DNA of 64,000 bases from Amphiscolops sp. MND2022 (Eukaryota): positions 36,210,001-36,274,000 of the forward strand of contig OZ076409.1 of assembly GCA_964187785.1 (NCBI GenBank), in the 5' to 3' direction. Of the stretch, positions 22,811 through 58,441 are shown piece after piece. The notes beneath the pieces were generated by a model, which was given only the letters and a program-made list of their open reading frames with translations, ran no database searches and was not told where the DNA came from. The first letter of the stretch is position 1. Each line of letters starts with the position of its first letter. A program made the position numbers and the translations under genes.

Positions 22811-23234
22811 CTTTGATAAATGAGATAGCACCGACGATAATTGAGGGGGTGAAGGCAGGATTGAATGATGGTGAATGGGTATATCAGGTGTATCGTGCCG
22901 TATGGAAAGGCCGCACAGAGGCGAGGCAACAGGAAAAAACTGGAAAGCAAGCAGCCGATGAGAATAAAAACAGTTGAGGACCGATTTAACCAACTAAACA
23001 AGATAACACACAAGACGTAAGACTAGGAGATCCATGCAGGTGTGATAAACAGTTTTTCACGACAATACATTGTAGTTAAAAATTTAGAATACGTTCTTTT
23101 GCTTACAACAAAGGGGGGAGAAAAGGGGGAAGGCCGCTGGCCTTTGGATCCCAGGGTAGCAACTCATTATGCGCTTCTGATGGTCGATGTCATCGATGCT
23201 ATGGAGACGTAAACTCTGTCGTGGAGAACTACTT

Positions 23235-26200
23235 CTAGGTTCTGATCCGTAAAGTGATCACGTAACGTAGCGTACCAAACCGGTACTGACTGATCGACCG
23301 TTCTGGATCATATATTGGCAAGTGGATCCGTGTGATTCGCTTTTGGTAAAGCTGGTACGTCAAAAGGGTGAGACACGCGTTGAACATTTCGGGCATCAAA
23401 GGGTGTTTATTGGATGCTCTAGTGCACAAAATAAACATTGCGTTGCTCCAATGTGCAGTTAGCGAGTGTACTAGGCGCACTGCCATGCCTACCGCCGGCC
23501 TTAAACGGAACATGTTTTCCTGTCCATATTCTCGGATAACGTAGCGAGCGGTCGCCGAGTAAGACACTAAATCCACGGGACAACACAACACTACCGTGCC
23601 GGGGGCCTGCAATAAATCCGTTGCGACGTAGGATATCCACACCAGGTAATTTTTGGTTGAGTTATTAGCCATTTGCCCGTAGCATTGCTATCATCGACAT
23701 TGGTTGAGGCGTCAAATGTTTCAAGATCGCTCTGCGATCTTGCCATACCGTGCTACCGTGCGACGCAAGGGCCTGTCGCCCATGTTGGTGCAGGACCGAT
23801 CATGCACTATGGAGAGTGCCTCGAGCACCGTTATTGGTTTTTTGGGGGTGAGGGTCTGCTGGTCCAGGACGTGTATATCTGCCTGTCGGCAGAAAACGAT
23901 TGCTTTTAGTTGAAGCCAATGTTGACTTAAGAACTCTCCGCGATAGAGATCTGCTAGATGGAAGCAGAGGGTCTCGTCAGCCTCCAACACGGTACGTAGG
24001 CTTTCCAGACACATCAGCTGCTTAATGGGGGATAGGGTCGTTGTTTCGTCTAGGGAGGTGACTAATATCCACCAACCTTGGATAGGCCGGTATATATCAC
24101 CCGGAGGGGAAGCAACATGGTATTTTCCCCGCAGCTGATGTGCGGTTATGCAGCGAATCATCTCAATTTTCTCTTGCTCACCGTTCATTTTGCCGAATTT
24201 TATGGATGGTGGCAAAGGGGGTAAGACGGCGGGTAGCGTGAATTCTAGACCGCACCGGTCATGCTGTGTCCATTCCTTGAAAGGGTAAGTGGGGCAGTCT
24301 GAGGGGGAAGTCTCGTGCATTGCTTCAAGCGTAACTTCTAGTGGTGGTACCACTCCTAGTTCTACGATGGTGTATGTTTTCTCTACAGTGATGATAATGT
24401 GTTGCACAGTCGGAGAGGGTTCGAGTTCTTGTCGTCGGGTCTTAACAGCTAGATTTCTTTGCAGAGGATGTTCTGGTGCGAGCGCCATCAGGAGTTCACG
24501 GGTGGGGATGGTTCGGTGGTTCGTTAGCCATTAGCTGTACGCAACTGCAGTTGCGGGAACCACAGGTTCCACACCTGTATCGTGGTGCCCTATTTGCTCT
24601 CAGCTGATAGCATGGCGCTTGTGAGAAGATACCCTTTTCAGTTCCAGGTTGATCCGGTGACAGGTCTTCTGAGATTTCTGGTAGTGTCCTGGCTCTGTCT
24701 AGAGTTCGGGGAGGAGCTCTAGTGCTGACTCTGGTCCGCGGGCCTCTTCTTGGCCGGGCGGTTGGCCCTCTGGAAGATGCTCTAGTCTTGCTTGAGGATG
24801 TTGTGTGGTTCCTCCTGCGATTGGGTGATCTGTCTCGAGGTCGTCCTCTTCTGTTTGAGGTGTTTGGCAGTGCAGGAAAATGGTTTGGATTTGGATTCTG
24901 GGTTTCACTCTCCCTCTCGGCTTCCTGTGGCTGTTCTGCTTCAATTAGGGGTTCTGGACCGCTAGAGTTCCCAGTCCGGAGACTGAACAAAGGGAAATTG
25001 CTTAGAGTATCCGTGAGGGATGAATTGGACAATAGTGGGGCAGATGTTCCTGAGGGTGGTGGTATCATTATTTTTGATGGTGCCTCTGGATGGATATCTT
25101 CTTGGTCTGAGAACAATGGCTCCAGGTCATCCAATTCAGGGAACACTAGATGCGGGACTGGTTCTACGATTAGTGGTTCAGTCATTTCTTGTTCTGACTC
25201 CGAGTGGGAGGGGTATCCAAAGTGACCAAATCGACGTTGTGGTATCCCTTGTTCGAGAGCCGTCTGTGTGCGGGTTTTGATGGTTCGCGGTGGAACCGGT
25301 CTGGTTGGTTCTAGTTCGAACGACGCTTATGATAGCTGCTCTGGTAAAAAAAAAGAGTCTCGGGAAATATCCGAAGCTATCTCTTGATGACTCTCTTCTA
25401 CGTATGGGTCAGCTATGGTGGCTACGTTCTGGTCTAGCCCAAAGGGCTGATGTGCTGCCCAATCCCAAGGGGCAGGTACATGCTTCTTTGATCTCTCAAA
25501 ATGAATTTTTTGACCCGTGTCTAGCACATAGAGGCGTCCGTCTTGTAGCACATCAGTTATCTTGTGAGGTCCGCGCCATGCACGAATCAGTTTGCGGGTG
25601 CCGCCTTTGGGTATATTGTGACAAAATACACAGACTGCGTCGCCAACAGCGTGTGCTTTGGCATTGAGGTGGCGGTCAAACTTCAGTTTCTGCCTCAATT
25701 GTGCTTGGTGAGTGTTTCTGCGAACTAGGTCGTGAATTTCTTGTTGTCTGAATAATAGGTGTTCTACAAACTCTTCCTTGGAGTCAAAATCTCGCGCTGC
25801 TAACTCAGGGTAGATGAATGATAATGGATTCGATATCTCTGCCCCATGTTGGAGCATATAGGGTGAAAACCCTGTATTTGCATGCCTGGTTGAGTTGTAC
25901 GCGGATAGGACTCCATCAATGTGTTCATCCCAGTCTTGCATCCTGCGCGACGTATAGACTCGGAGTAGGGTAAGCAACGTTCTTATTGTCTCTCCACGAA
26001 TCCATTGCCTCTGGGGTGCGCGGAGGTAGACGTAACTTTGGTTACCTGCGATGCTTTCATGAGTTCCTGTGCTATTTCCGCAGTGAAGTTCGTTGCATTA
26101 ACGGATTGCATCCTGGCTGGAGTGACGTGCCTTGCAAACCATTTATTTAGGATGATTTTTGCAATTGTCTGTGCATAGTACTTGTCGTGGGCGCATGGGA

Positions 26201-29455: not shown

Positions 29456-32043
29456 TATCTTGCAATGATATCAAAGTTAATGCAAGCTATATCATGTTAT
29501 TACCTCAAGCAGGGCGTTGAATGCACTCAGAATAGAATCAAGTCTTATCAAAAAGATTTCCGAAACTGAAGATACACCACGGTCCCAAAAAGCTAAAGAC
29601 ACTTGATTTCAAACCTCAAATCGCAATAAACTTGTACATAATCAATAGAAACAAAAGCTCGAAAACGTTCTCAAATTTCAAATAGAAGTACTGGGGTAAT
29701 TTTGTTTTGAACTCACACAGAATTTACAAAAGTTATCAGATAGCAAAAGTCTTCGCTAATTTTTGACTTTTGTGTTTTTTGGAAGTTTATAAAACAATAT
29801 CTCCTGAACCGTGTTTGAGACAAACTTTGTAACTTTGATTCAACAGGTTTTTCTGCAAACGCCCCCCGTAAGAATTTATACGAAAAATTTACACAATCAA
29901 AAAATGCAGAATCGTCAATTTTTACTCCGTAAAAGATTTTTTTTCGACGAAATTACAAGTGTTTTTGGCTGTTCATTTTCAATAAAGAATTTTCAGAATA
30001 ATTTTTGAATATGAAAGGTAATATCGGTGTCACGGCGACAAAATTGACCGAAGCAGGTTTTTATTTTCACCAATTGTTTCTGAGATATTGCTTGATAAAG
30101 TTCAAAAAATTTTCCTCGAAACACAATGTGATATAATTTTTTAAAACTTTGATTCGATTTCAAAACAAAAAACACCTCTTTATTACTCATAAAAGTTCGA
30201 GTGACTTTTGCTTCTGAGATTTTTTGTAGAAGGAATATATTAAAAGATTTCGCTCTTTGAAAATTTCCGTTAGCCAAATCGACTTTTTTTTCACTTTTTT
30301 GGTACCATTGTGTAGCTGGTCATTATTCTTGAGAGATTCAATAAAATCGGAGGTTAAAATGGGAATTAAACAGTTTTAACTGCTTTTGTTTGCTTCGAAA
30401 TGTAACAATACATTAGCTTTCCGTGTAGCTCAGATTTTGGAATACCTGTAAGAATTTTCTGAGCACATATGAGATGCTATGAATTGAACCCTCAAGGTGA
30501 TATAAGGTCTCCATAGAATCCTTCCTTGTGACATCACTTTTGTTTTTAAGACTATGAAAGGCTACTTCTAAAGAGTCAATCACCTGAATGAGACCTTTTT
30601 GAATTGTCTCTCGTCATTTTACACGTCACAATGCTGTGAAATAATTCCCTATTGATTTAACATCAAATTCAAAAATCAATCTTTGTTCTTCAAAGCGTGT
30701 GAATTCGTTGACTTCGATGTTACTTCAAACTAATTTCAGGAACAGCAATTCAGTTCAACTTTACCGTATAATGTGTTTTTGTTCATAAAGTTGTTTATAG
30801 ACTTATTACAATTCAACAAAAAATAATACTCGAACATGTTCCAGACTTTTCATTAGAGCTTTTTGTTCTCTCATCTTCCTTGATAATGCAAAGCGTGTCG
30901 TTTGTAAATAGAGCTTCTTTGAAAAGTTTCAAAGAGCAACATTTGTGTTCCGATCTGTTGAATTTTACAGAAAACATGCAAAATCTGTTGTAATGACATG
31001 GAGCCAATAAACATTACAAATCTTATATCTTGAGAAATTTTCTTTTTCATTCTCAATTCAAGCAATGGACTCTCGAATAAGGGGAGTGATAGAAACCATT
31101 AAGTTTTCCATAAAACAAAATTGATTTTTTATTGGACGAACGCTCGATTGGAATTTCACATGACAAAGTGTAACTTTCTACAATACTCTATGCCGCATTT
31201 TAGGCGCCTCTTTGGTTATTTGATTTTCAAAATTCAATTTGCGCAAAATAGTCGCTAATGGAAAAATCTAATCCTAGCACCTAGCGTCAGCCTTCAAACA
31301 AAGCGAACAAAAGGTAAGATTGTCCTAATTTTTTGTAAAATTGACCTATATCACTATTCAACTATCAGTTTTGTTGTTCTGAATTTCTTATATCCGACCT
31401 TTAGTTCATTGGACCTTTTTACAGTTAATCGTTATTCTGAAACCAATCGAGAACTCTCCGATGTTTAATATTACTTTCAACTGGGGAAGTAGCAAAATGG
31501 AAAAAACTAGACTGTTGTATTAATCGCTGCCCTAAAGTCTAGAAGAAGAATGATAATAATAAGAAAAAACGTTTATTTCCCCAGATCGGGGCTGGACGCC
31601 GAATAACCAACTGCTTTTCTAAGTCTGCACACTAATCGGTACTATGACCTCATAGCAATCACCGTTGCCCTTTTATTTTGCTTTTCTCCGCCAAAAGAAA
31701 ATTGTCGATGACCATACCACCTAGGCATAAAGGACTTGCTTGAGTCCCAACAATTGTGAGTTGGGGGATATTAAAACCTGATACAGTACAAAACTTCAGG
31801 CGGCCCTCTATGCTCGCGAAACACTTTGTTTCTGCTGAAAATCATTCGGTTTGAAAAACTACAGGAAAAAAATCGCACAGTGTCGAAAAAACACAAAGGG
31901 GGACGCTTTGGTCTTCTGTTTTCTTTTGCTAGCATAAAAACTTTTCGTTTAATGAGAGGCTCGAACCCAAGTATCCCTCCTTCTTCTGAGACCTCGTTTT
32001 GAGGAAATCCGAGTGAAATTTTTAGGTCGAGTGGCAGTTACAA

Positions 32044-32815
32044 TGTAACGGCAAGCAGTTATCGGTCGCTTAACGCGTTAACAGAGGTGGAGGAACCTGC
32101 AGGAATGGGTGAATCGCTCGGGACAGGCGCCCATCGCCACAGATCCATTTTGCCTCCAGGGGTGAAATACGTCCCGGGGCCGCGGGTGCTTCGACGAATA
32201 CTGTCCAACCGGTCCTAGTCTTTGATTGCTAATAGTAACGGGCATCTTTCTGGCTCTCTAAAGACCACCGCTTAACTAGCATATAAAAACAATGCCAAGA
32301 ATAAGGTAAATTTCCAGTTCCAGGGTGACATGTGAATAAGATCTAAAATTGGGGAATAAGATCTAAACTAGCGCTAGCGCTACTGAATACAGCCAAAATC
32401 ACTGAAAATACATGAAAACAGGCACAAATATGGCAAACCACACAGCTACAAGCTGGGGCGCAGGGACTCCAAGCACCAAACAAGGATCTTTAGGCGAAAA
32501 GACTCATTTTTACGGTTTCCGCTACATAGGGTAGCATAATGCTGAAAATCAATAAAACCGGTGTTAGCACCTCAAAAAGAGTCTATTTTCGGATGTTCTT
32601 GCCGTCTCTGGCTTCTGTCATGGCGGCGCGCCCGTGTTTTTGCTCGTTCTTGCTCTTTGTTGTCGAAGTACCTGCCAATTTCGTGGAAACAGCGAAAAGA
32701 GCAATCACATGCTCAGTGCCACGTCACACATCGGATTAGAATTTTTGACAAAATTTCTGAACATGTCAAAGTTGCAAAATCGGTTGATATTGCTGTACCA
32801 GAGCTTGCCGTTACA
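32044..32815 (-). repeat. 3' LTR of element A
   Basis: Termini tgtaacggcaagc...gcttgccgttaca (13-bp perfect inverted termini). It is nearly identical to 46287-47058. Confidence 0.95.
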
Positions 32816-33924
32816 TCACTCCCCGGGCTTTATGCATGACGTCCCTGTCATGCGGAGAAGCTGGCATTGAATACATCGCCACATCATGAGTGCAATCCAC
32901 GGGGATCTCAAACTGGCGATGTTGCAACGGTCCAGTGGCACTGTCGTCTTTTGCTGATTGGGCAACCATGAGGTCTTGCTTCTTGCCATCCAGAGAACCT
33001 GCATCGTCCACAAACTGTTGAAACAGAGCTAGCTCGAGAGCTAGAAAACCAGTACTCAAAAATGCACCTTGAAATTGATCAAATCCAAGATTCCATACAT
33101 CAATCAAAAAAGCACAACTTTTTTAGTACGAGTTTTTTGCAAAAGTCTGAATAGGATACTGCTAGCACTTTGGTTTTTGGACGTCTAAAATTTCTTTTAC
33201 GGAGCGCTAACGCTCCAAAGCGCACGTGGTTCTCAGCAAAACATCTTTTCCAAGGCAATAAAATTTCAGTTTGCAGCACAGTTAAAATTTCTTTTCGCTA
33301 AAACTTCTTTTCGGCAGTAAAACCACTGTTTAAAAGGAAGACAAGCTGTTTCTTGGATACTTTTTTTACAGTTCGGCTTGGTTTGGGCAACACGCACTGA
33401 TGTGCAGCTCCATACCTGTATAGAGTTCAGTAGCATCGGTCAAGGAGCGCATCAGAAGCAAACTACGAACTGCTCGTAAGAGTGAGCACTGGAGTAAAGC
33501 AGACAAAGGTAGATCAAATCTCGCCATTTGCAGATCAGGAGCGCGCGCGCTCTTTATTTTTCCGGATATCACGTTGGAATCTGGAGGAAACTTCAGGAAA
33601 TCTTGAAAAAAAACAGAAATAGCACCTTTCGGGCGTAGCAATACATGTAGAGTTTTTGGGTTACTTATTGCACTGGAACTCCCCGGGCTTTAATCGTTGA
33701 GCACCTTCATTATTATTAAGATAGCAATGACTAACAAAAAATGCGAAAAAAAGCGAGAGGATGGATTGGGCGTTGAAGACACCCCTTCCCCCCTTGAAAA
33801 GAAGTGGAGTGTGGTTCTGGCAATGGATTTCAACGCACGCTACCACAAGGTAACCAGCAACGCGTATTAAGCATGAGATATCAGGATAGCAAATTGAAAC
33901 TTAACAAAAAAATTTACGTTGAAG

Positions 33925-36459
33925 CTAAGTGATGCCAGGAAATTGTTCAATACTGGCAATGGAGACATAGACGCGATCATGCAGAAATACAGTGATATCA
34001 GTTCCTGCCAAAACGTCCATGACACAATGATAAAAATTGTCCAAACTGCGAAGTGGGCGTTCAGGGTCCACTATGGGGAAGTGAATATCAGGGGTTTCGT
34101 TGGACAATAATGAAGCTTTCAAGTGCTCCAAGCATAAGAAAAAGTCATCGGTGATTTGTGGTGAACGCTGGGAGGGGCGTGTTATCATTAGGTGAATAAC
34201 TTGATTATCCATAAAAGACAATGAGGATGGGATAGTTAGGACTTCACCAACTGTTGGGCGAAGTTGGAATATTTTGTCGCAACCACACTCGCGAAGAATG
34301 TAGCGCAAGGCAGCAGAATTGGTATTAAGGTCTGCAGGGCAGCAAACTGCTACGTGGCCCTGCACCTGCAAGAAATCAGTTTGGTCGTAAACAATGTAGT
34401 CGACCAAATTTGGTCGTAGGGCACCAGGAAACACAATCTGACGTCCGGGACCTTTTTCATCAGCTGGGTCTATATGGTTCTGTCCACGAATAGCAGATAG
34501 ATCCTGCCATACGGACCTCGACAGAGACTGATTATCCACATTTGCTGTTGACCATGAATCCAGGGTACCAAGTGAAGTGTGGATCGTTACAGGCTCGTTA
34601 AAAGAATGGGTCCAATCATCCAAAAGGCGGATACGAGGGAAGCTGGCGAACAAAGTGATAATCAGCTCTAGCCACCATTGGAACCGTAGTTTTCCACAAT
34701 AAAGATCAAATATGTGGAAGTACAAAATGAGTTCCTCAGTGACAACAGTCCGCAATCTCTCTAGACAGCTCCGCAAGCTGTCAGGCTGGACCAAAGAGTG
34801 AGCATGTGGGGCAGTTACAAGCAACCACCAATATTGGGCTGGGAGATACACTTCACCAGGCTGACAGGTGATGCCGTATTTGTCAGATAAGAGGTCAGCG
34901 GTGATACAGCGAACCATTTGGATGGGTTCCCTCTCATAATTGAAAGGTCCAAATACAATGTTAGGAGTGACAGGAGGCACTGTGACGGCAAGTGTGAATT
35001 CCAATCCACGGAGATCGCTTGTCCACTCCTTGAAGCGAGGACAAGGTTCCTCAGCAATCTTGGATTTAGATAATTCTTCCAGCACGACGTCTACTGGGAA
35101 GATACATTCTCTTTCTAGTCCGGTGTATGTCTTCTCTGCGCGGATGACAACGCGACTGACAAGAAGCTTACCATTGTGGATAAAAGGTTGAGGCTTTGGA
35201 TCCACCGGAGCTTTCACAGGTCCAAGTGGGATAGTGGGCGATTTGTTCAGAGCCATGACACAAGTGCAATCGCGGAACCCACACGTTCCACATCGATATC
35301 GAGGTACTCGATTCCGGCGTAAGCCATAGTGTGGGTTAACCTGCGTTGCGCCTTGGTCTACATCGGATGTAAGCTGCGCGGTGGGCGCATCAGAGTCAGA
35401 ATCGGATGTAATTGATGGCTGTGTGTCACTTTCACGAGCTGTTTGCCGTGAAGAAATAGTGTGTCCTCGTGGCCTCCGAGGAGGTCGTCCTCGAGGACAT
35501 CCTCTGCGACTGGGAGTCCTTTGAGCGCGCACGCTCACGTTCTGCGACCGGGAATTTGTTGCTCGTGTCGAACAACGAGATAAAGCAGCTCGCGATCTGC
35601 CACTGCCACGCGTGCTAGGGACATTGTTCCGAGCAGTTGGCTCGTTGGTGTTGGATAACTCGGTGTCACGGGTTTCAGTGTTTTGGAGGTTGGAGGTACC
35701 ATTCTGCAATTGTGGAATACTAATAGGCACATCCGTCAATGTAGGATTCGTCAACAGAGGAGCAGGTGTACCCGCTAGTGATACTTCGGCTTCTCCAGTT
35801 GCAACGGGAATATCTTGCGATTGAGGTACTTCCGGAATAACTTCAGATTCGGATAAAAATGGAAGCTCGTAGTCATTGGCAGGTTCAAATGACCGAGGTT
35901 GTTCATCGGGAGGCATTGAGGCTTCGAATAGCGCCGGAGGTTCTGCCTGGGAATGATCTCGGGCATCTGACAGCAAGTCGTCAGAGCGCGAACGCTCTGG
36001 GTCGGAACTGAAATAGTCAAATTGCTGATAGTGGAGACGACTGCCTCCAGCTCGCATTCTAGTACGCAACCTGGTGTCCATCCAGTGGCGTCTCCTTGAT
36101 GGTAGCGATACATCTGATGCTTCAGAGAGCGGTTCTTCCTCGCGATATGAGGGTTGTGAGCAGTCATCTCGGATCTCCTCAGCAGAGTGCTCAGGCTCAG
36201 GATCCATGACAACGACCACTTCGCCACTCCCCGAGGGAAGCGCAACAAACTCCGTAGGGCCACCATGATGAGGTTTCAGCCGCTCAAAGTGCACTTTTTG
36301 TCCTGAGTCCAGGATATAGACGCGGCCATCTTGTAGTACATGGACAACCTTGTGCGGACCACGCCAAGCTCTCATCAACTTCGGTGATCTTTTTTGAGGT
36401 ACATAGCGGCAGATTACCCAAACGGGGTCTCCCATATTGTATGCGTTTGCACGAATAGC
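33925..36459 (-). pseudogene. Pol C-terminal extension of element A: SH3/GPY-F module, disordered linker, YxLR plus Cys4 motif, tandem TARG1-like macrodomains
   Basis: In frame with the integrase ORF across a single TGA (KYD*AIRANAYNMGDPVW; element B reads KFDRH here). Motifs WRGPHKV..VHFERLK; HYGLRRNRVPRYRCGTCGFRDCTC; MVRCITADL..PGEV..LRSCLERL; HVAVCCPADL..TVGEV..HLMITR..LEHLK..IHFP..DITVFLH. Confidence 0.8.
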
Positions 36460-39400
36460 TCAATCATATTTTAGCTTTTGACGTTGTTGCGCCTGATGCG
36501 TGTTTCTACGCACCAACTCATGAATCTCTTGCTGGCGAGCAAGAATATGCTCCACATAAGCTCCATGCGATTCAAATGATCTGGCTGCGAACTCCGGATA
36601 CAGATAGGTGAGAGGAATAGCCTTTTCGGTCCCTCGGGTCAGCATGTAGGGTGAAAACCCAGTCGTGGCATGGCGCGTTGAGTTATACGCTCCCATGACT
36701 TCATCCAAATGCTGGTCCCAATCTCTCATGCGACGCGAGCAAAATACCCGCAACAAAGTCAGCAAAGTCCGATTCTGTCGTTCAACCAGGCCTTGGGTGC
36801 GCGGATGACCCGCCGTAGAGGTACCTTTTGTGACCTGAGATGCCCTCATGAACTCATTGGATACCTCTGCAGTCAAGTTGGGGGCATTGTCTGATTGCAT
36901 CCGCGTAGGCGTGCCGTGTCTGGCAAACCATTTCTGCAAAAGCAACCTAGACGTGGTCACTGCATCGTAATCCTCATGGCTGCAGGGTACAGCCTCCGCA
37001 AACTTGGAGAAATGGTCAATTATCATCAATATGCCGGTGTTGTTGTTATCGGAGGGGCATATTTTCAGATGGTCATACTGGACTAACTCATTGAAATACC
37101 CACTTTGGATATTTTTCAAGTGAAATCGAACGTCACCCGGCCTGTCACGTACTTGCTGGCACGTGAGGCACTGACTCACGTACTGACCAACACTGCGGCG
37201 AATACCTGGACAGGTGTGGCGTTCTTGGATTCGCGAAACCACCTTTGCAATGCCTTGGTGGCCCATGGCATCATGAGCACGAAACAAAAATTCATGCTGG
37301 TACAATTGTGGCATAACAATCATGCACGGACGTTCGTGCAATGGACGTTGCTGAGGTGTATACTTAACACAAAGAATTCCATTTTTGTTCACAAACAGTT
37401 TTTTTTTCTGCTTGTAATAGTTACGCGTAAACGCACGCACGTCGTCAGGAAAAATGTCATGATCAATAGACTCTTGTGCTACCAACTTCTTTATGGCTAG
37501 AACATGCACATCACGATTCTGCGCCAAAAGCAGATCCTTGATGCCATGCACCGTGTTGGCATGTTTATGAAGTTCCGTGTCTATGTCTTTGATGGCTAGG
37601 GCAGCTTGCCTAGCCACCGTTGGAGCGGAAGCCATGGCTTGCTCCACTGTTTCGTCAAGGGCATATGTCATGCGTGAGGGGATATTTGCCACATGTGTAG
37701 GCAGCAAGTAATCTTGCCTAGCCTCTTCAGTGACGTCAATCCAGTCCTCAGGATAATCTGGATAGAAGTCCTCGTGAGTTTGCAATGTAGGCACTGGGGC
37801 CTCAGGTAGTGGAGCGCGTAGCGCCCTCTCCCTTTTCTCAGCGGCCTGACGGCGCTTACGCCGTCGTGCAACACGACAAACTGCATTTGTGGGGTCTGGT
37901 TTAGTGTTCCGCAAGTTTGCGGGCAATTGGGGGTGATTGGGTATCTCCCGACCATGCAAATCGAACCAAGGTGCAACGGGCAGCTGGTCAAACTCCTCTT
38001 GTGAGAGGAAATTCCATTTGTCCGTTACAGCTGGCAGCTTCTCGAGTTGCTTCTCTCGCCACCGATAATCATTGGTTCGTTTACTGAGGCCATCGGCATT
38101 CCTGTGCTGTGTCCTGGGACGATGCTCCACTTTGAAATGGTACTTCTCGAGTGCCATAACCCATCGACCAATCAAGGCCTGATCAGTGGAATACGTTTTG
38201 AGCCAAGAGAGAGCTTGATTGTCAACCCGAAGGATGAACTTTCTGGAGCAGAGATAACTGTGATTCTTCAAGATGAAATAATAAGCTGCGTACATTTCAA
38301 GCTTCGGAGCGCCATACTTCGCTTGAGTGGCATTCAACTTCTTGCTGCCATACGCAATTGGTCTCAGGCGCCTTTCGCCCGGAGGACCCTGCCACTGATG
38401 CAAAATGCCGGAAATTGCAACAGCACTGGCATCAGTGTCCAGCACAAATTCGCCCTCCGAGTCCGGTTGCGCCAAGGCAGTTGCCTCGATCAAAGCCAAT
38501 TTGACGGCGTTGAAAGCATGTTGCTGCTCATCCCCCCAGGCGAACGTTGGCCCAGTCCGGTAATAGCATGCAAGGGGGCCACAAGCTTGGCATGCCAAGG
38601 AATGAACTCTCGATAATAGTTGGCGAAGCCCAAAAAGCTTTGCATCTCTGTTTTGTTCTCCGGTACTTCCCAATCGCGTAGTTTTGCCACTGCTTTAGGA
38701 TCAGGTTTGATACCTTCGGCAGAGACCACACGTCCCAGGTACTTGATTTCCGACTTCATAAAGTCGCACTTAGTGAGTCTCATTTTGGAGCCAGCTTCGC
38801 GCAGACATTCAAATACCTCGCGTAAGCGTACCATGTGGTCCTCGACTGTCTCGGTAGCAATGACGAGGTCGTCAATGTACGCCATCACCATGCTTCCTTC
38901 CCGGTTCACAATTTTCCGTAGCGCTCGCGCTATGGCTCGCTGGAAAGTAGCTGAAGCGTTACACATCCCAAAGGGCATACGTCTCCGTTCAAACAAACCC
39001 AGCTCGCAAGCAAAGGCCGTTTTCTGCCTATCTGCTTTGCGGACTGGTATCTGCCAGAAAGCCCAGGCCAAATCAATGCTAGTGTAAATCTTGGCCTTAC
39101 CCAAGCGTGAAAGCCTTTCATCGATGCGTGGGAGGGGATATGCGTCCTTTATTGTGACAGCGTTGAGGGGGCGAAAGTCGCAGCAGAACCGCAACTCCCC
39201 ATTTTTCTTTTTTACCATCACAATTCCACTCGCCCAAGGTGACAGCGAAGGTTGGATCATGCCCAAAGCCAGGAGATTGCGTATCTCTTGATTGGCACGC
39301 TCAGCCTTTTCAGGGGACATCCTACGAGCACCTTTACGATACGGTACAGCCCCAGGCTCCAACTCAACAGGATGCTTTGCTATTGTGCAGCGACCAATGT

Positions 39401-40241
39401 CTGCTTTGTGCTTCATGAATAGGTCATCAAATTCCGTTGGGATGTTGTTCAGCGAGTCGCGGGCAGTCTGTCCCCACAACTTCTGTACCTCCTCTAACTG
39501 AGATTCGGGTCCAGGAATAGGGGCCAAGAGATCAGGGTCAGTGCGCTTTCTGATCTCGCGCTCTGACAACCCCTCCTCCGATGGGTCTGTAGAGGAGAGA
39601 AACTCGAACTCCGACGACGACGAACATTCTGAATGCGAGTTCAGGTCCATTTCAGAATAGACCCTGTTGACGAACTCATTTGGGGAGTCCGATTTTTCGT
39701 CACTCTCGCCTTTGTGCGCTAGCGCACATTGGGGAACTGCATGGTAGATTAGGCGTACTGGCGCAGCAGTACCAAGCATGGTGCCGCACTTCACTTTCTG
39801 GGCATTGCTTGTCAGATTGCCAACAGAGACATAGAACGAACCTGTCTCTCCAACAGTGGCTATAGTGTCCTCCACGAATATAGTGTTCTTCAGCAATCGG
39901 TTCGGTGTTGCAAAGTTAATCACCACATTTCTGAAAGCGAAAGCTTCCAAGTCCGAAGTGACCACCTTGGCACGTAGAACAGCACGCTCGAATGGCTGTA
40001 GCACATTGTCTTGATCCAAAATTACTGTACTGGATAAAGTTTCATCGCTCGTCTGGGGGTGTGCGTGATGCCACACGGGCTTAGCCGGGGCTCGCACCAC
40101 TATTTTCATGGAGGTCAGATCTACCAGCACGTTGTATGCTCGCAGAAAATTCCTACCCAGCAAGAAATCTTCCACGCCATGTGCGTCATCAACGACCACG
40201 AAATTTGTTTCGAGTTCATATCCACCAAGTTGGAAGCGCAC
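36460..40241 (-). pseudogene. pol: Pol core of element A: protease C-half, dUTPase-like region, RT, RNase H, integrase (frameshift near 38555)
   Basis: Motifs DFLLGRNFL; LRFCCDFRPLN; MPFGMCNA; YIDD; DTDASAVAISGIL; HDAMGH..CLTC; D-D-E residues in QYDHL, QSDNA and GLVERQN. Confidence 0.95.
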
Positions 40242-40262
40242 GCGCTCCGCTATTCCAAGCGT

Positions 40263-41117
40263 TTATATCGTCTTCCCATTAGCAGCATACAAGTCGATTC
40301 GATGAGGTTGTAGCGCTACACCTGTCCGCAAGGCTACACGGTTGAAAGCTGAGAAACTCATGATTGATACGCCTGACCCCGTGTCGACCATTCCTCTCAG
40401 TGGAATAGGGTTAGTATTTTGCACTGCGAAAGATACCACGAGCGACGCACGCTCATCTATGCGGGCCTCACCTGTGGGCTCTTGCTTGCTGACGCTATAG
40501 CAGCGTAATTCATGTGGCCCTAGACACACTCCTTGAGGGAACACATCTACTACCACGCTAGCATCAAATTTCATGTCCACGCCATCTATGTTGGCATGCA
40601 CAGGAACTGGGGTGTATGCCGTGCACGTACTAGCTTCGCCTTCAGTATACCATTCTTTTGGCAGTGGTAAGGAGATCTTTTTGACAGCCGAATTGCTAGC
40701 TAACTCCAGCTTCAATTTTTCCAAAGTCAAATGTGGGCGTATTTGTTCCGAGGCCAGCACTAGGTGTACAGACAATAAAGTCCGGCCACTAGGGTCAAAC
40801 GTTGTGGACTCCAAACTTGTCTGCACCTGTTTTGTGCCACAGGTGACAGTCAAGGGAGCATTTACAGTGGCTTGGTCAGCTGGACGTAGCATTAATACCC
40901 TGCCAGAGGCAGTAGACAGGGTTTGCGTTGCATCCGGTTTCTTCTTTTCTTCAGCCCTAGGGCTGGAAGTTTCTGACTGGATTGATAATGTTGGACAACC
41001 TGCAGAAACCTCAGTTGTGCACGATTTCACGGGGACAGCAGGCGCTGGAACCGCTGCTGCAGCTCCTTGCTGGGGCTCACTACGTGGGTCAAGAATATGC
41101 TCCGGGCGATGAACCAC
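40263..41117 (-). pseudogene. Pol N-terminus of element A: degenerate protease-like segment plus the aspartic protease active site
   Basis: Contains GMVDTGSGVSIM. An in-frame TAA at ~40263 separates it from the next ORF (GKTI*TLGIAERVRFQLG). Confidence 0.8.
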
Positions 41118-42238
41118 CAGCTTGCGTCTCGCTGCACGCAGGATTGCTCTAAGGTTGCGGTCTGTCTGTATTCAGGAGCTATGTGTACTGACGCAGCCGG
41201 CATCGGCAATCGCGTTTCATGCTGCAGCGATTCATGCTGCGGAGGCATTGGTGACCCCGGCACTTGGTCGCTCTGTAGGCACTGGTAAGGTACAGTCTCG
41301 GTGCACCCTGGGTCACGAGGCTGTTGTTGGTGACGACTCCTTTGGAGTTCCTGTACTGTGAACCGAAGTGACTCCACGGTAGGTGGGTCGGCTAAATACG
41401 CCTCTGTCGCAAACACCACCGTCAGTTCTCGTTGCAACACGGGTTCGCTGACCCCGTCCATGAACCGATGCAAGATTTCATAGCGTCGAGTAGTGATAGG
41501 CTCATCAGGAAAACCCTGACTCCTCAGACCCTCTAATGCATCTAGATACTGCATCAGGTCCTCTCTTTCAAGTTGACTTCGCAACCTGAAAGCCTGCCTC
41601 ACTGGCCAGCGGTTACTCCCAGTCCCAAATCTACTGGAGAGCAAGGTAGTCACCTTCTCGTGAGAATCCCGTTCGGACTCCGGTTTGTTGATTATGAAAC
41701 TTCGAGCTTCATCACCTAAGTGATCGATTATCGCCCAGGCCTTGTCGACAGGTGAAGCATTCGAATAAACTCGCTCCAAATACCGTTTCATCACGAGCAA
41801 CCACTCTTCAACAGTCCCGTCTTTCGAACCTCTGTATAAGGTTGGTCGAACAGCGGTTTGATCACGATTGGCAATCAAGGGAGCCAACTCTTTAGCTATA
41901 GTTTTGGATATCGCCTCCGTGAATTTCAACTGTTCGGGAGATATCAATTCATCTTTTGGGTCATCAGTACCATGATTGTCCTCGAGCAACCCGCCTCGAT
42001 CCATAGGCGACGTGTGAGCCATGCCCATGGTTGCGTTGTTCGAAGATATCGAGGCCGGTTCATCAATTGGTTGTGCTGCGCTGGTGCCCTCTCCCCCCTT
42101 CAAAAGGAAGCAGAGGCGTTGGAATTTTTCCGAAGGTTTCATTCCAGCGTTAGATGTAGTCCAGAGTGCGTCGCAGGCACTCAACACTGCTGACTTGCAC
42201 TGTTCAGGATCAAATTTCAAAGTTCCAGAGGAGTCCAA
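41027..42238 (-). CDS. gag: Gag (capsid-like) of element A
   Basis: Contains RPTLYRGSKDGTVEEWL..HLGDEARSF..LSSRFG..FRLRSQLEREDLMQYLDAL..FMDG, a typical retrotransposon capsid pattern, located upstream of the protease. Confidence 0.85.
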   Translation of the reverse strand: MDSSGTLKFDPEQCKSAVLSACDALWTTSNAGMKPSEKFQRLCFLLKGGEGTSAAQPIDEPASISSNNATMGMAHTSPMDRGGLLEDNHGTDDPKDELISPEQLKFTEAISKTIAKELAPLIANRDQTAVRPTLYRGSKDGTVEEWLLVMKRYLERVYSNASPVDKAWAIIDHLGDEARSFIINKPESERDSHEKVTTLLSSRFGTGSNRWPVRQAFRLRSQLEREDLMQYLDALEGLRSQGFPDEPITTRRYEILHRFMDGVSEPVLQRELTVVFATEAYLADPPTVESLRFTVQELQRSRHQQQPRDPGCTETVPYQCLQSDQVPGSPMPPQHESLQHETRLPMPAASVHIAPEYRQTATLEQSCVQRDASWWFIARSIFLTHVVSPSKELQQRFQRLLSP

Positions 42239-45200
42239 AATTTATGACCCCTGCAGGCAAGTTTTTTGAACCGTGGGATTTGCCTCGTTTGCGCCCAGGA
42301 AGGTCTTTTGGGTCCCTTCCGTTGGAAAATGAAGGCTTTTTGGGTTTGTCTCCTGTACAGCGGAAGTATTGAAGGTTTACACTGATAGTTTTTCTGGCGT
42401 TTTTTTGGAATTTTGTTCAAGACGTGTGTCTGAACTGAGTCAAATTCAGTTTTATCAATCGTACTGGGTAAAAAATGACACAGCACGTTTAGTCAGCCGC
42501 ACAAGTCAAAAAAATAACCTACCGTTGCTGATGATTGCCTCCAGCTCCAAGCTAGAGCCTTTTTCAACAATTTTTGGATTTTTCAACTGTTTTCGAAAAT
42601 CTCTCAAATGGCTTTTACAAGTGCTGGAAAAGTGGTATCGGGCTCAAAATTGGTCACGCGATCACACGTATAGCCAGCTACACTACAGTAACAACCAATG
42701 AGAATTCAGACCACTGGGCAAGATTTAGATCTGATACTGACGTTCCGTATCACCGTGTTTCGATTGACACTTTTTTTTACCTGCAATCAAAGACTCTCGT
42801 CCACAGTGCTGAGCTCTCGAGCTCACTTTTTTCAGCAACGGTGCACCAAATGACACTAATAAGAATAGTCCAGGGCAATGTAATTCCAACTTCCCAATAT
42901 GGTGCGCCGACAATTCCGAAAAAATGATCCAATTCGTTACAATACACAGGATATCACAACTTCAAGTAACAAAATGCTATGATCCAGCAAGACAGCCCAC
43001 TCGATACTGATCAAATATCACACGCACAGCAATGAACGAACTATTGGGAGTTCAAACTAGTGGTTTCCACTGGTTTCCAACACGTAGAAATGACTTTTTT
43101 CTCACTTTCCCAGTTTTCGTCTCGGTGAAACCTTAAACTGATACAATGACCATGCACGTCCAAGAAGAGTCAAAACCAGTTCCAAGGGTCGGAGTGTGCC
43201 GAAACGTATACAGCACTTCCAGATTGATGTACTGACCCAGAAAGTGAGTCCAGAATCGGGGTATTAGGATCCAGTCACAGGTCAGAAGTTTTTCAGGTAT
43301 TTTTTGGGTTTTTCAAATTCACTTGAAAAAAAACTCCAGAGGCTAGCGCTAACGGTAGAAACGCAGGATCGGCTTCAAAATCAACCACACAATTTCACGT
43401 ATGTTGAGGTACACGGGAAAAATAGCTGATTTGTGCTGAGATGACTAGGTGAAGTTTCAACACAGTATAGACTTTCGGTATCACTGTGTTCCAAGATGTA
43501 CTTGTTTTTCACGTGTCAACCCAGATTCTGGCGAACTGCTAAGAGCGCTCACGCTCGTTTTTTTTCGGCAACAACACGATAAATTTGCACTGGTTACGAT
43601 AGTCGGCAGCAATTTGGCCCCACTCTTTGAATAAGGTGTTCAGGCAATCCCACAAGACTTCGTAGAATTCGCCTTCTTGCGCACCTCCTTGTGCAGTTTG
43701 TTTTAGTCAATTTCTCAACAGATATAGTAGCAATTGACACCAAACTTGGCAGACGCTGTCAGTAGGCACCAATCACGCTGTTAGAGTAGTGAAATAGACG
43801 GTGGTAGGCTTGCAGGGGGTCTTCTCAAGGATTTGGACCTCTGTTCGTCTCGGTGAGGACTTAAGAAAATTGATGTTTTTTCAACGTCCAAGACTTCTGA
43901 AAACACGTTGTAAGGCTCGTAGGCTGTTCAAATTTGCACAGCGCTTTTCCACAACAAGCACACTGGGCCAGAAAATCAACCTGGTCTAGGGCAAAAAGTC
44001 TCCAGTCATCCACAGGAAGAATTTCAAAGAAGTTTTGGATTTTCGAAAAATCGCACCACAACACTTAAGAGGCTCCTGTGTGCGCTGGAAGCGCTGTATC
44101 AAGCCCAATATTGACCAGCAGATCTTAGGTACACGTAGGTTTACGAAAATGAATACAGTTTTGAGCTGCGCCCCTTCTACACAGTTTCACCTAGGTACAG
44201 ACGTGCGGTATCACTATGTACCGAAATGCACTGTTTTTCATGTCTTTTTCAAGATTGCGGTCCACTGGAAAGAGCTAGCAAGCTCAAAAGCTCTGCAACA
44301 ACGTAGGAACTAGCACAGGTTACAATGGTTGGCTGCAATATAGCCCCACCCGTCGGCTAAGGTGCCCGGGTTACTTGGAAAAACTAAGAAAAAACTGCCT
44401 TTTTGCGCACCTTTTTGGGTTCCACGTTTTTCTTATTTTCTCAACAAGTATCACACAGATCGGCACCAAACTTGGTAGTTTATGGCAGTGGGCACTTACA
44501 ATGCCACTAAAATGGTCGAATTGAAGCGCGAGCGCTTATTTTAGGTTTCGACCCACTATGTACGTTGTACACGAAAAAACACTGTTTTTGACGACTTTTT
44601 TTTACAAATTGACCAAGAGGATCACCTCAGAAAGTGATACGGCGGGCAAAATGGGACCAACGTGTTGCCCCACTATCCGTAGCACTGGGATAAACCCTCA
44701 ATTTGTGGTGCCCACTAGGTGTAAGGCACTGACAGTCCTGCAGTTTTGGATTTTTTCTGTCCTTTTACGCTTTTCTGAAGTCGAAACGTCAGAGAGCTTT
44801 TCTCGACTTTGGTGAGCGATACGCCCATTAAAATTTCGGCACTAACGTTAATTTTTGTGGTGATTACGAAAATGCAACCACTTTTTGGCTAGGGTTCAGG
44901 AATCGATGACCCGACCCTAGCTCAGAGACAGTCCGGTTTTGTGGAAAATTGATCAAATTCAGTGCGTTTTTCCACTTTTCTCAGCACTGAATGGGAGTTT
45001 TTACACGCGGTTTTCACCACCACGCGTTATTTTTACTATAAAAACAGAAAATGAGAGCGCGCGGGCTCCCAGGTCTCGAAAACACTGAGTGCCCCAGAGG
45101 TTTTAATGATGCACTCTGGCACTCCTGAAACTGGCCAAAAATCAAGGTTTTTCGACCTGTTCTCACCAAGAAAACGTTACAAACTCTCCTAAACTCTATT

Positions 45201-46286
45201 TTCGGTACTGTGGAGTGTGCCCCAAACTAATAGCAGCACGGAAGAGGCAATTACATCACAATCCAGCACTCTCCCAGTGGCATTTCATAGTGGTTTTTTG
45301 CCAATTTCGCCAAAAACCGGGTTTTTTCATGCAAAATGTGTTTCAAAAAGGACTCCAACGGCCTTTCTGGTTGTCGTTACATTATGTAGAATAACCCTCA
45401 AGGTTTTGGGCTGCTTTCTATTCATTTTTGCAACTGCTGTGGCTAATACTTCGAGCGCTCGCGCTCGTACCAAGAAAAGTACTCAAAAATGCCAAAAATC
45501 ACGTTTTTGCGACCTTGCACTAAAAATCGCACTTTTTTCACTGAAAACAGGTGCAAAAGCACAGACTCAGTTGCAACAGGGTAAAACTAGCATGCACAAA
45601 TGATTCCCCGTCAAAAAATACACAATCTAAAAATTTTTTCATACCATACTCCAAAAAACCGATTCTTGCGGAATGAGGGGTGGTACCTTCGCCGTCCTTT
45701 TTCTCAACAACCAGACCAGCCAGAGAGAAACGGTTTGAACCGTCGGCAACGTCAGTGTTTGTTCTAGCTTTCCACTAAAAACCGTGCTTCTAGCACGTCT
45801 CCACAGGAAATGGGAAAGGTGAGTCGGGAACACTCGTTTCAGCTCATCTATCGGTCAGATGGAACATGGCGCATCCATCAACTGAATACCTCGTACATAG
45901 CCAAAAACGCTGAAATGAGCTGTAAAACATCTGTTACCACATGCGTAACGGCTTTCTATCGGTTCGCTAAGCCATTACAAAGGTACCCGCTGATGGGAAC
46001 GTGCAATTTTAGAGGATACCTGTCAACAAATACCTGTTATCAAAACATACCAAAGGTACTCGGAAAAATCCCCCGAAATACAGGAAAAATACCAAAATAT
46101 AACGTCATATCATCTAAAAAATTTGGAAAAACTCTGGGTAAACGTCTCCTTCCAGAGTCCAATCGTTCTTGGCGTCCAATACCAGGGGGTCGGAAATTTC
46201 AAAACCATATAATAGGGCAGTAATCGGAAGCGATCCCTCTGTGGAAAATGACGCCAAAAAATCCCTCGCCAAAAAATGAGGTCTCA

Positions 46287-47058
46287 TGTAACGGCAAGCA
46301 GTTATCGGTCGCTTAACGCGTTAACAGAGGTGGAGGAACCTGCAGGAATGGGTGAATCGCTCGGGACAGGCGCCCATCGCCACAGATCCATTTTGCCTCC
46401 AGGGGTGAAATACGTCCCGGGGCCGCGGGTGCTTCGACGAATACTGTCCAACCGGTCCTAGTCTTTGATTGCTAATAGTAACGGGCATCTTTCTGGCTCT
46501 CTAAAGACCACCGCTTAACTAGCATATAAAAACAATGCCAAGAATAAGGTAAATTTCCAGTTCCAGGGTGACATGTGAATAAGATCTAAAATTGGGGAAT
46601 AAGATCTAAACTAGCGCTAGCGCTACTGAATACAGCCAAAATCACTGAAAATACATGAAAACAGGCACGAATATGGCAAACCACACAGCTACAAGCTGGG
46701 GCGCAGGGACTCCAAGCACCAAACAAGGATCTTTAGGCGAAAAGACTCATTTTTACGGTTTCCGCTACATAGGGTAGCATAATGCTGAAAATCAATAAAA
46801 CCGGTGTTAGCACCTCAAAAAGAGTCTATTTTCGGATGTTCTTGCCGTCTCTGGCTTCTGTCATGGCGGCGCGCCCGTGTTTTTGCTCGTTCTTGCTCTT
46901 TGTTGTCGAAGTACCTGCCAATTTCGTGGAAACAGCGAAAAGAGCAATCACATGCTCAGTGCCACGTCACACATCGGATTAGAATTTTTGACAAAATTTC
47001 TGAACATGTCAAAGTTGCAAAATCGGTTGATATTGCTGTACCAGAGCTTGCCGTTACA
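46287..47058 (-). repeat. 5' LTR of element A
   Basis: Direct repeat of 32044-32815. One substitution is visible by eye (ggcacAaata vs ggcacGaata). Confidence 0.95.
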
Positions 47059-47200
47059 CAAGTTAGTAACTTACAACTATTAGAAGGGCTTATAAAGTCT
47101 GCCAGTTCGAAGGTTTGAAAAAGCCATCTTCTTTTGACGGTTTTTTCTTCTCCGAAAACCGCTGACTAAAAATGAACGCTATGTAATAGAAGGATGTAGG

Positions 47201-55620: not shown

Positions 55621-57448
55621 AAATTTTGCCAAAAATTCAATTTGCCATACAATCCGTTCAATTTAGTCACGTCTGCAAGTCAGTAGGTAGTGGGTTCGAG
55701 CTCGGGGTGGAGCCTGAAGTTTTTCTACATTCCCAGGCAGTACGTCGCCTTGCTTTTTTGGCTTATTTGAAAAGTGTGGTGGCTTTTGAGTCTCACTTTC
55801 ACCATACGTTTTTTGCAAGACGTGTGTGGCGGAAAATATACCGGTGCTTATCGAGCGTCCTGTTGTGGAACTCTTTGTGCATGTTGTATGAGCGAACTAT
55901 TTCTCAGAATAGTGGAGATATTTTCAGTCTAAATTTTATTCATTGTTTTCTTTGTCAAACAAAAGATGGTAGAAGCTGTTCGATATTTTGAAAGGACTGA
56001 TGTAACGGAAGCCTGTGGTACGACGAGTTTTCAGAAAAAGTCGACCAAAAATTCGTTCAAATCTGACGTGGAAAATTGAGCATGTTTTGGCCAAAGTACC
56101 TGTCAAAAAAGTTGTTCAGCAGACAAAGCAAGCCGCCCGCGGAGACGACCGAACGGGAACACGGAGAGCATAAGCCCGAGCGGTTAGAAAACTCATAAAT
56201 AGACACTTTTTAGGTGCTAACCCCGGTTTTTACCGATTTGCAGGGTTATGCTACCCAATGTAGCAAGAACCGGAAAAATGCGTCTTTTCGCTTAATTATC
56301 CTTGTTTGGTGCTTGGAATCCCTGCGCCCCAGCTTGTAGCTGTGTGGTTGGCCATATTCATACCTGTTTTCCTGAATGTTCACTTGTTTTAGCTAGCTCG
56401 AGCGCTAGTTTTGCAGTTTAGATCTTATTCCCCATTTTAGACCTTTTTCCCATGTCACCCTGGAATTTCACCCTGTGTAACGGCAAGCTCTGGTACAGCA
56501 ATATCAACCGATTTTGGAACTTTGGCATGTTCAGAAATTTTGCCAAAAATTCAATTTGCCATACAATCCGTTCAATTTAGTCACGTCTGCAAGTCAGTAG
56601 GTAGTGGGTTCGAGCTCGGGGTGGAGCCTGAAGTTTTTCTACATTCCCAGGCAGTACGTCGCCTTGCTTTTTTGGCTTATTTGAAAAGTGTGGTGGCTTT
56701 TGAGTCTCACTTTCACCATACGTTTTTTGCAAGACGTGTGTGGCGGAAAATATACCGGTGCTTATCGAGCGTCCTGTTGTGGAACTCTTTGTGCATGTTG
56801 TATGAGCGAACTATTTCTCAGAATAGTGGAGATATTTTCAGTCTAAATTTTATTCATTGTTTTCTTTGTCAAACAAAAGATGGTAGAAGCTGTTCGATAT
56901 TTTGAAAGGACTGATGTAACGGAAGCCTGTGGTACGACGAGTTTTCAGAAAAAGTCGACCAAAAATTCGTTCAAATCTGACGTGGAAAATTGAGCATGTT
57001 TTGGCCAAAGTACCTGTCAAAAAAGTTGTTCAGCAGACAAAGCAAGCCGCCCGCGGAGACGACCGAACGGGAACACGGAGAGCATAAGCCCGAGCGGTTA
57101 GAAAACTCATAAATAGACACTTTTTAGGTGCTAACCCCGGTTTTTACCGATTTGCAGGGTTATGCTACCCAATGTAGCAAGAACCGGAAAAATGCGTCTT
57201 TTCGCTTAATTATCCTTGTTTGGTGCTTGGAATCCCTGCGCCCCAGCTTGTAGCTGTGTGGTTGGCCATATTCATACCTGTTTTCCTGAATGTTCACTTG
57301 TTTTAGCTAGCTCGAGCGCTAGTTTTGCAGTTTAGATCTTATTCCCCATTTTAGACCTTTTTCCCATGTCACCCTGGAATTTCACCCTGTGTAACGGCAA
57401 GCTCTGGTACAGCAATATCAACCGATTTTGGAACTTTGGCATGTTCAG
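55621..57448. repeat. 914-bp tandem duplication
   Basis: 55621-56534 matches 56535-57448. Identical ORFs end at 55991 and 56905. Confidence 0.9.
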
Positions 57449-58441
57449 AAATTTTGTCAACAATTCTAATCCGATGTGTGACGTGGTACTAAGCATGTGA
57501 TTGCTCTTTTCGCTGTTTCTACGAAATTGGCAGGTACTTCGACAACAAAGAGCAAGAACGAGCAAAAACACGGGCGCGCCGCCATGACAGAAGCCAGAGA
57601 CGGCAAGAACATCCGAAAATAGACTCTTTTTGAGGTGCTAACCCCGGTTTTATCGATTTTCAGCATTATGCTACCCTATGTAGCGGAAACCGTAAAAATG
57701 AGTCTTTTCGCCTAAAGATCTTTGTTTGGTGCTTGGAGCTCCTGCGCCCCAGCTTGTAGCTGTGTGGTTTGCCATATTCGTGCCTGTTTTCATGTGTTTT
57801 CAGTGATTTTGGCTGTATTCAGTAGCGCTAGCGCTAGTTTAGATCTTATTCCCCAATTTTAGATCTTATTCACATGCCACCCTGGAAATGGAAATTTACC
57901 TTATTCTTGGCATTGTTTTTATATGCTAGTTAAGCGGTGGTCTTTAGAGAGTCAGAAAGATGCCCGTTACTATTAGCAATCAAAGACTAGGACCGGTTGG
58001 ACAGTATTCGTCGAAGCACCCGCGGCCCCGGGACGTATTTCACCCCTGGGGGCAAAATGGATCTGTGGCGATGGGCGCTTGTCCCGAGCGATTCACCCAC
58101 TCCTGCAGGTTCCTCCACCTCTGTTAACGCGTTAAGCGACCGATAACAGCTTGCCGTTACACTGGAATTGGAAATTTACACTGTTTTTCCTTGGCATTGT
58201 TTTTAAAAGCTGTCTAGACGGTAGTTGTGAAGAGAAAAAGCATAGTGCCCGTTATTCTCAGCAGTTACAGACTGGAACAGGCCGGAGAGCATCCTTTAAG
58301 ACGGTTCCCCCTCCTCGGGACCGGCTATCCCCAGGATGACAAAGTGAGCTGATATCATGGTGGTTTGTCCCGGACCATATCCATGGTACCAGTTCTTCCA
58401 CTCCAATGTTGCGATACCATCGCTTAGCGCTTGCCGTTACA
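56915..58441 (+). repeat. Older related 3' LTR hosting a nested solo LTR
   Basis: Termini tgtaacggaagc (56915) and gcttgccgttaca (58441), preceded by the purine-rich gaaaggactga. Its central part is homologous to the A LTR. Confidence 0.7.
57390..58161 (+). mobile_element. Solo LTR of the element A family
   Basis: Full 772-bp reverse-complement copy of 32044-32815 with few substitutions, flanked by ctg/ctg. Confidence 0.92.

Follow-up and report, generated by a model that had tools for sequence, protein, structure and literature searches.

We analysed a 64,000-nt stretch of the Amphiscolops sp. MND2022 genome (assembly GCA_964187785.1, contig OZ076409.1, positions 36,210,001 to 36,274,000), hereafter the window. 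On its reverse strand, at 32044-47058, lies a Gypsy long terminal repeat (LTR) retrotransposon belonging to a family whose single gag-pol frame ends, after the integrase (IN), in two domains, D1 and D2, with predicted macrodomain folds. Pfam matches in the window and in an unbroken copy give the order gag, protease, reverse transcriptase (RT), RNase H, integrase, and the element has paired LTRs with TG...CA ends, a primer-binding-site (PBS)-like sequence and a purine tract. No env was detected in the element, and the Pfam matches of the unbroken copy at E<=0.01 include no Chromo domain. The features of the element are as follows.

46287..47058, reverse strand: 5' LTR, TG...CA, 12-nt terminal inverted repeat, 99.87% identical to the 3' LTR over 773 nt
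41030..42241, reverse strand: gag region, broken in the window copy (matches the N-terminal part of the unbroken copy)
40139..40400, reverse strand: aspartic protease region, approximate limits (PF13975 in the unbroken copy, mapped by tblastn)
40263-40265, reverse strand: in-frame stop inside the protease region (frame listing)
38733..39215, reverse strand: reverse transcriptase (PF00078, E 1e-33)
38140..38538, reverse strand: RNase H (PF17919/PF17917), in a different frame from RT in the window copy
36673..37311, reverse strand: integrase zinc finger and catalytic core (PF17921, PF00665, PF13683)
36460..36462, reverse strand: in-frame stop of the window copy
36265..36445, reverse strand: integrase C-terminal domain (blastp E 2.9e-4 to the PF22938 Integrase_p58_C stretch of relative L095)
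35482..35493, reverse strand: RGRP motif in a low-complexity linker, found in 10 of 10 Pol copies from five subfamilies
35260..35292, reverse strand: CxxC-x4-CxC cysteine cluster in the linker, visible in the sequence and in the subfamily proteins
34615..34971, reverse strand: D1, degenerate TARG1/ALC1-class macrodomain (predicted model)
33973..34404, reverse strand: D2, TARG1-class macrodomain (predicted model and profile comparison)
33925..33927, reverse strand: Pol stop codon (frame listing)
32044..32815, reverse strand: 3' LTR with a purine-rich tract before it (LTR comparison)

Downstream of the RNase H-integrase frame (36463-38694), and in phase with it, comes an 844-aa frame (33928-36459); a single stop separates the two. 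A first-pass annotation of the sequence had read Pol in this way, in frame past the integrase core across one stop, and ten other copies from five subfamilies, chosen for their long open frames, are all open at the site of this stop and run 794-854 aa beyond it. The frame that it gave, 33925-36435, needs correcting: the start lies at 36459, and the copy has further breaks upstream. Because of these breaks, in gag, in the protease and between RT and RNase H, the window copy is dead. Its LTRs are one base apart, yet it has at least four coding breaks and shows ~95% identity to other copies; the probable cause is either mobilisation in trans of a template that was defective beforehand or homogenisation of the LTRs.

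The integrase C-terminal domain is presumably SH3-like, and its proportion of nonsynonymous differences (pN) between subfamilies is 0-0.22. The RGRP motif we take to be AT-hook-like; in open reading frames of at least 250 aa at 21 other TARG1-type loci of the genome (see below), RGRP occurs at gag-side positions only.

Predicted folds and lost residues of D1 and D2

The last 346 aa were modelled with AlphaFold2 from a 33-sequence alignment; the model shows two compact alpha/beta domains, with a low-confidence linker between them (mean pLDDT 64). In a Foldseek search with this two-domain model, ranks 1-8 were all human TARG1 (E 5.9e-10 to 1.2e-8, TM(target) 0.74-0.84), a match that a wide structure search places on D2. 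Foldseek superposes D2 on TARG1 at 2.1-2.9 Å, and VIA-align, over 136 residues (model residues 188-331), gives an rmsd of 2.3 Å with Z 17.9 for TARG1, followed by DarG (16.2) and Poa1p (14.0). D1 folded alone reached pLDDT 75 overall and 83-97 in most core blocks; Foldseek again returned TARG1 at ranks 1-8 (E 1.0e-5 to 6.2e-5), with Z scores of 11.7 to Bacteroides Q8A8B0 (2afc), 11.6 to TARG1 and 11.4 to DarG, and rmsd 2.7-3.1 Å over 115-117 residues for 2afc and TARG1 (TARG1 3.1 Å over 117 aa). Both predicted models contain the minimal macro fold. The first-pass annotation had proposed two tandem TARG1/OARD1-like macrodomains at the integrase C-terminus and suggested folding the last ~350 aa as a check; the models bear out the proposal, with TARG1 the best match for both domains, and all the motifs that it quoted are present in the frame.

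Sequence evidence alone is weak. Neither Pfam nor NCBIfam gives a macro match for D1 or D2 of the window, and a single-sequence search of PDB found none; the 33-sequence profile, run against 177,635 PDB sequences, found human TARG1 alone, at E 0.55-0.77, and Macro clusters in the ESM Atlas scored 0.88-0.89, below the 0.9 mark, so that we treat them as leads only. A D2 profile compared with intact Gypsy macrodomains of the same genome gave probabilities of 92.6 and 95.0, with scores of 47-52 against shuffled maxima of ~20. For D1 the probability was 39.7 with 9 sequences and 5.0 with 24, within the range of column shuffles; because this match is unstable, D1 is assigned to the macrodomains on its predicted fold. 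Comparison of the D1 and D2 profiles with each other was weak (probability 19.9), and both contain an F-x-I-x-D-x-x-R loop pattern, which suggests a duplication after divergence. The largest protein library gave 396 matches at E<=0.001; the 150 matches listed are all unnamed and provide neither a link to macrodomains with names nor a taxonomic range.

Active-site positions were numbered on TARG1 from PDB alignments and checked against residues named in papers (Lys84, 125, Gly43, Ile44, Gly123); for residue 125 the review PMC7050489 names Glu125, and the PDB sequence has Asp. As anticipated in the first-pass annotation, the equivalents of Lys84 and Asp125 are gone. At the Lys84 position D2 (34177-34179) has Arg in 30 of 33 sequences and Lys in none, and D1 has Ala (24) or Ser (9). 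The GCGLD diphosphate loop is replaced in D2 by D-P-E-R-P (from 34068), the Asp125 column holding Pro in 24 and Ser in 9 sequences, with Asp at Gly121, Pro at Cys122 and, at Gly123, Glu in 29, Gly in 2, Lys in 1 and Gln in 1. The D1 loop can be aligned in two registers, two residues apart, which put either invariant Gly91 or invariant Tyr89 at Gly123 and in neither case Asp at Asp125; around the Gly43/Ile44 loop of D1 ~16 residues are missing, and the D1 diphosphate loop contains Asp and Tyr. In the aligned sequences, then, both domains are without the catalytic Lys and Asp.

The Asp of the N-terminal GD motif contacts adenine in macrodomains. D2 keeps it, as Asp197 (34375-34377, aligned with GDLF), in 33 of 33 sequences; D1 has no clear equivalent. 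In TARG1, K84A removes activity, and Lys84 is described as essential in both TARG1 and DarG (PMC8501950). With the G123E change, TARG1 is reported to lose catalysis, recruitment to damage sites and the binding of ADP-ribose, but to keep RNA binding (PMC5928194), and we infer from the residues that D1-D2 have lost ADP-ribose binding.

Copies, relatives and surroundings

In the 1.07-Gb genome the last 346 aa gave 4338 candidates; the 117 that were scored are 94-100% identical, and ~100 of them, counted by eye, have no stop in this region. Searches with diverged relatives revealed five high-copy subfamilies with single open frames of ~3052, 3192, 3292, 3220 and 3116 aa and the same terminal region, D1 and D2 being in frame with the integrase in all five.

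Selection was measured between natural copies. For two pairs from two sister subfamilies, the ratio of nonsynonymous to synonymous rates (dN/dS) is 0.06-0.07 in D1, 0.12 in D2, 0.20-0.29 in the linker and 0.01-0.02 in RT/IN. Between the window subfamily and the others dS is mostly saturated (pN 0.24-0.38 in D1 and 0.31-0.43 in D2; proportion of synonymous differences, pS, 0.78-0.88 in D1). Among 30 close copies pN/pS is 0.11 in D1 and 0.23 in D2, and one pair of older copies gave 0.78 in D2. D1 and D2 are thus under purifying selection, and the pair is no passenger; the neutral evolution that the first-pass annotation named as a refutation was not seen in the unsaturated pairs (0.06-0.12).

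A 3-bp target-site duplication, TTG, flanks the window element (32041-32043 and 47059-47061). In a survey of 25 LTR ends parsed from 30 loci, 11 of 15 solo-type LTRs of the family had exactly 3 bp, one had 4 bp (in an A run) and three had none; two of three other full copies also had 3 bp. LTR pairs were obtained for one of three other subfamilies, where the duplication is again 3 bp, inside an A run. An inverted repeat of 12 nt forms the LTR ends, and a T run precedes the PBS-like TGGCG, which is found ~15 nt inside. Gypsy (Ty3) elements usually make duplications of 4-6 bp, a length that does not define the family and is not the rule among these elements; the 3-bp duplication points to an unusual integrase. 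A literature search on 3-bp duplications returned nothing relevant.

A Pfam Macro search of the genome found another Gypsy lineage, in which a canonical TARG1 domain (E 1.2e-27 to TARG1) follows the integrase. Searching with this domain gave 1443 candidates, of which 150 were scored and 21 loci sampled for long frames and distinct score groups. The domain follows the integrase at 14 of these loci, lies between RNase H and integrase at one and between protease and RT at two, and ends a gag-protease frame at four. The Pol-borne cases are L049:2439-8213, L082-L094, L095, L096 and L099. For the other four, neither RT nor integrase was found in their 9.9-kb loci; these elements are multi-copy and ~4.9 kb long, with one 834-845-aa frame that keeps Lys and GCGLD (L097:1219-3720, L098, L100:6272-8776, L101). 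Catalytic Lys and Asp are kept in 19 of the 21 sampled domains; the two domains without them (L082 and L088, both C-terminal) are a separate degeneration. L049 also has a weak dUTPase match (E 0.003, residues 214-294) in its protease-RT interval.

In a tree of this genome's elements only, the four RT-bearing lineages share just 19-34% RT identity. The macro tree omits D1 and D2, whose sequences have diverged too far; in it the RNase H-integrase and gag-protease domains group together (98/95), and with its base open it did not show independent captures. A word-limited search of long proteins with the intact Gypsy domain gave three non-Gypsy-looking proteins among 199 candidates. Three unnamed metagenome proteins (P0295-P0297) have intact TARG1 domains; one carries a viral methyltransferase domain (Pfam), and by eye one resembles another RNA-virus replicase and one a non-LTR retrotransposon with an N-terminal macro domain.

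Two further features of the window are related to the element.

23191..24407, reverse strand: D1-D2 region of a second, degraded element from a related double-macro subfamily (tblastn, 37-52% identity)
57390..58161, forward strand: solo LTR of the same family, with 3-bp duplication CTG

The second element spans 23191-27436, and downstream of it are short frames (20385-22380). Partial, diverged LTR-like copies occur at 52027-53363 and 56169-57379, and a 77-78-bp tandem array (47185-47804) abuts the 5' LTR of the window element. Within that element the ~4-kb 5' untranslated region (42250-46280) contains internal duplications (43453-43769 versus 44183-44495). Upstream of the protease, 40450-40620 looks by eye like a second, degenerate protease-like segment, which is also seen in P0029. 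The 230-aa spacer between RNase H and integrase (37400-38100) is conserved (dN/dS 0.06-0.14); a family search with it gave no convincing match. No tRNA genes were found in the 64-kb window.

What the conserved pair may do

Our preferred reading, to which we give a probability of about 45%, is that a repurposed pair of pseudo-macrodomains, with the AT-hook-like motif, tethers the integrase to a host partner. The pair would derive from a TARG1-class ADP-ribosyl hydrolase of the type kept intact in other Gypsy lineages here, and the predicted models support common descent, for D1 by fold and for D2 by fold plus profile. The ancestral domain would have been a counter-defence enzyme that was duplicated in the window lineage and afterwards lost catalysis and its canonical ADP-ribose pocket, the catalytic residues having gone and binding presumably with them. 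The pair would have been kept as a binding scaffold blind to ADP-ribose, comparable to the SARS-unique domain; G123E in TARG1, which abolishes ADP-ribose binding but spares RNA binding, is in favour of this. Most likely remaining on the integrase, the pair would, with the AT-hook motif, anchor the integration complex to nucleic acid or a chromatin protein of the host, as a chromodomain does at the same position of Pol.

Several observations weigh against this reading. The element's own protease could cut the pair off the integrase, and the C-terminal position says little when intact TARG1 domains occupy other places in Pol. No sequence preference is obvious among the 16 three-base duplications. 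In four of five subfamilies D2 has a net acidic composition, which makes it less likely that D2 itself binds nucleic acid; its GD-motif Asp and an Arg in the new loop, each present in 33 of 33 sequences, could mark a remodelled nucleotide pocket. The Gly123 mapping comes from a weak HMMER alignment (E 0.55; the same register recurs at E 0.019), and for the D1 loop there are the two possible registers, two residues apart. The 30 close copies were top protein matches, so their pN is biased low.

A broader scenario, which we hold tentatively and at rather less than even odds, places the pair in a conflict over ADP-ribosylation. The host would restrict retrotransposons by ADP-ribosylation, plausibly through helicase-PARP proteins; distant Gypsy lineages would answer with TARG1 erasers, and the duplicated integrase pseudo-enzyme of the window lineage would block or exploit the host system without catalysis. 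The genome, which its macroH2A and tankyrase genes mark as that of an animal, has 32 host PARP matches among 41 candidates. Five of eight scanned PARP loci (L166, L167, L169, L171, L172; L168 looks alike by eye) encode single-frame fusions of 1829-2080 aa in which a ZNFX1/UPF1-like SF1 RNA helicase is joined to one or two PARP domains, two of the five with a ZNFX1-domain match; they are candidate immune ADP-ribosyl writers. RNA viruses are described as using macrodomains against host ADP-ribosylation (PMC7050489). Support for a PARP-retrotransposon conflict is circumstantial, and the idea of the first-pass annotation that the domains counter a PARP-based defence has gained from it mainly for the intact relatives.

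Among more specific roles, the pair might be a reader whose remodelled pocket binds ADP-ribose or poly-ADP-ribose (PAR) and either directs integration towards PARylated chromatin or sequesters or shields the marks. Besides the close superposition of D2 on TARG1, the invariance of Asp197, Gln200 and Arg303 and the presence of Arg263 in 30 of 33 sequences are in its favour, and the ALC1-class is stated to include readers (PMC7050489). Glu at Gly123, Pro at Cys122, Asp at Gly121 and the absence of the first loop region from D1 speak against it, as does the reported effect of G123E on TARG1, and we regard the reader as doubtful. Of the first-pass proposal that an ADP-ribose reader targets integration, the macro fold and the C-terminal position have held; the reading of ADP-ribose has become questionable, and the position argues for targeting only weakly, since TARG1 domains that are intact also sit at two other places in Pol and in elements without integrase.

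Another role is that of a pseudo-enzyme in counter-defence, the pair acting, on or off the integrase, as a decoy or inhibitor of a host ADP-ribosyl transferase or a partner of one. The Lys and Asp kept in 19 of 21 Gypsy TARG1 domains, the four gag-protease elements included, the helicase-PARP fusions and the viral precedent all fit such a role. We think it unlikely: D1 and D2 show no rapid evolution at domain level (dN/dS 0.06-0.12), helicase-PARPs may target viruses only, and the interaction of the pair with a host PARP is hypothetical.

D2 might instead be a non-canonical hydrolase using other residues; SCO6735 is described as an active ALC1-class hydrolase without both catalytic residues, and DarG as keeping the Lys only (PMC7050489). 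With Lys84 essential in TARG1 and DarG, and with the substrate loop changed as well, this is improbable. That the domains are decaying passengers, as the lost active sites, the want of a Pfam match and the single older pair with pN/pS of 0.78 might suggest, is largely refuted by dN/dS far below 1 between subfamilies and by the in-frame pair in five subfamilies with mostly saturated synonymous sites.

Comparison with known systems

TARG1/OARD1/C6orf130 (PDB 4J5Q, 4J5R, 2LGR), of the ALC1-like class with DarG and Poa1p, shares with the pair the minimal macro fold and the order of motifs and is its best Foldseek match. It differs in that Lys84, Asp125 and the GCG loop are replaced here, D1 is ~20-30 residues shorter and two copies are fused to an integrase.

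Poa1p-like macrodomains are probably already annotated in the Pol of insect Gypsy elements in sequence databases. The literature searched, which did not extend to most subscription papers, to repeat databases or to supplements of preprints, contained no account of two TARG1-like domains in tandem on an integrase, and a term search of PMC4408406 gave no mention of macro. Capture of a macrodomain by an LTR retroelement is already published: fish epsilon-like endogenous retroviruses carry macro-domain open reading frames, according to PMC4977317, citing Basta et al. 2009. Compared through that citing paper, ours is a Gypsy element with no env detected, whose integrase C-terminus carries two degenerate TARG1-class domains in tandem. 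Orchid Gypsy elements that carry AlkB offer a parallel as a lineage fixing an eraser of a host modification, read there as counter-defence (PMC9289625); the mark is m6A and not ADP-ribose, the domain is a separate ORF, and its activity has been shown. ADP-ribosylation by SIRT6 is reported to silence L1 (PMC4695847).

RNA viruses are well known to use macrodomains for counter-defence. This genome, with TARG1 domains that look intact both at three Pol positions and in gag-protease-only elements, a conserved dead pair and candidate host writers, forms a natural series that bears on whether ADP-ribosylation restrains LTR retrotransposons enough to shape their proteins.

Chromoviruses such as MAGGY likewise carry a further folded domain behind a linker that follows the integrase C-terminal domain, and tethering of a Gypsy element by its chromodomain has been described (bioRxiv 10.1101/2021.11.30.470311); the terminal domains here are predicted macro folds, and the unbroken copy gave no Chromo match. 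The closest functional analogy is the SARS-unique domain SUD-N/M of nsp3 (PDB 6YXJ, 8UFM), two tandem macrodomains of SARS-CoV that are reported to bind G-quadruplexes and not ADP-ribose (PMC2674928). SUD belongs to another macro class and to an RNA virus, with Z only ~8 to D1 or D2, and we claim no shared ancestry. The dead pair would be either an integrase tether of a new kind or the counterpart, in a retroelement, of the SARS-unique domain.

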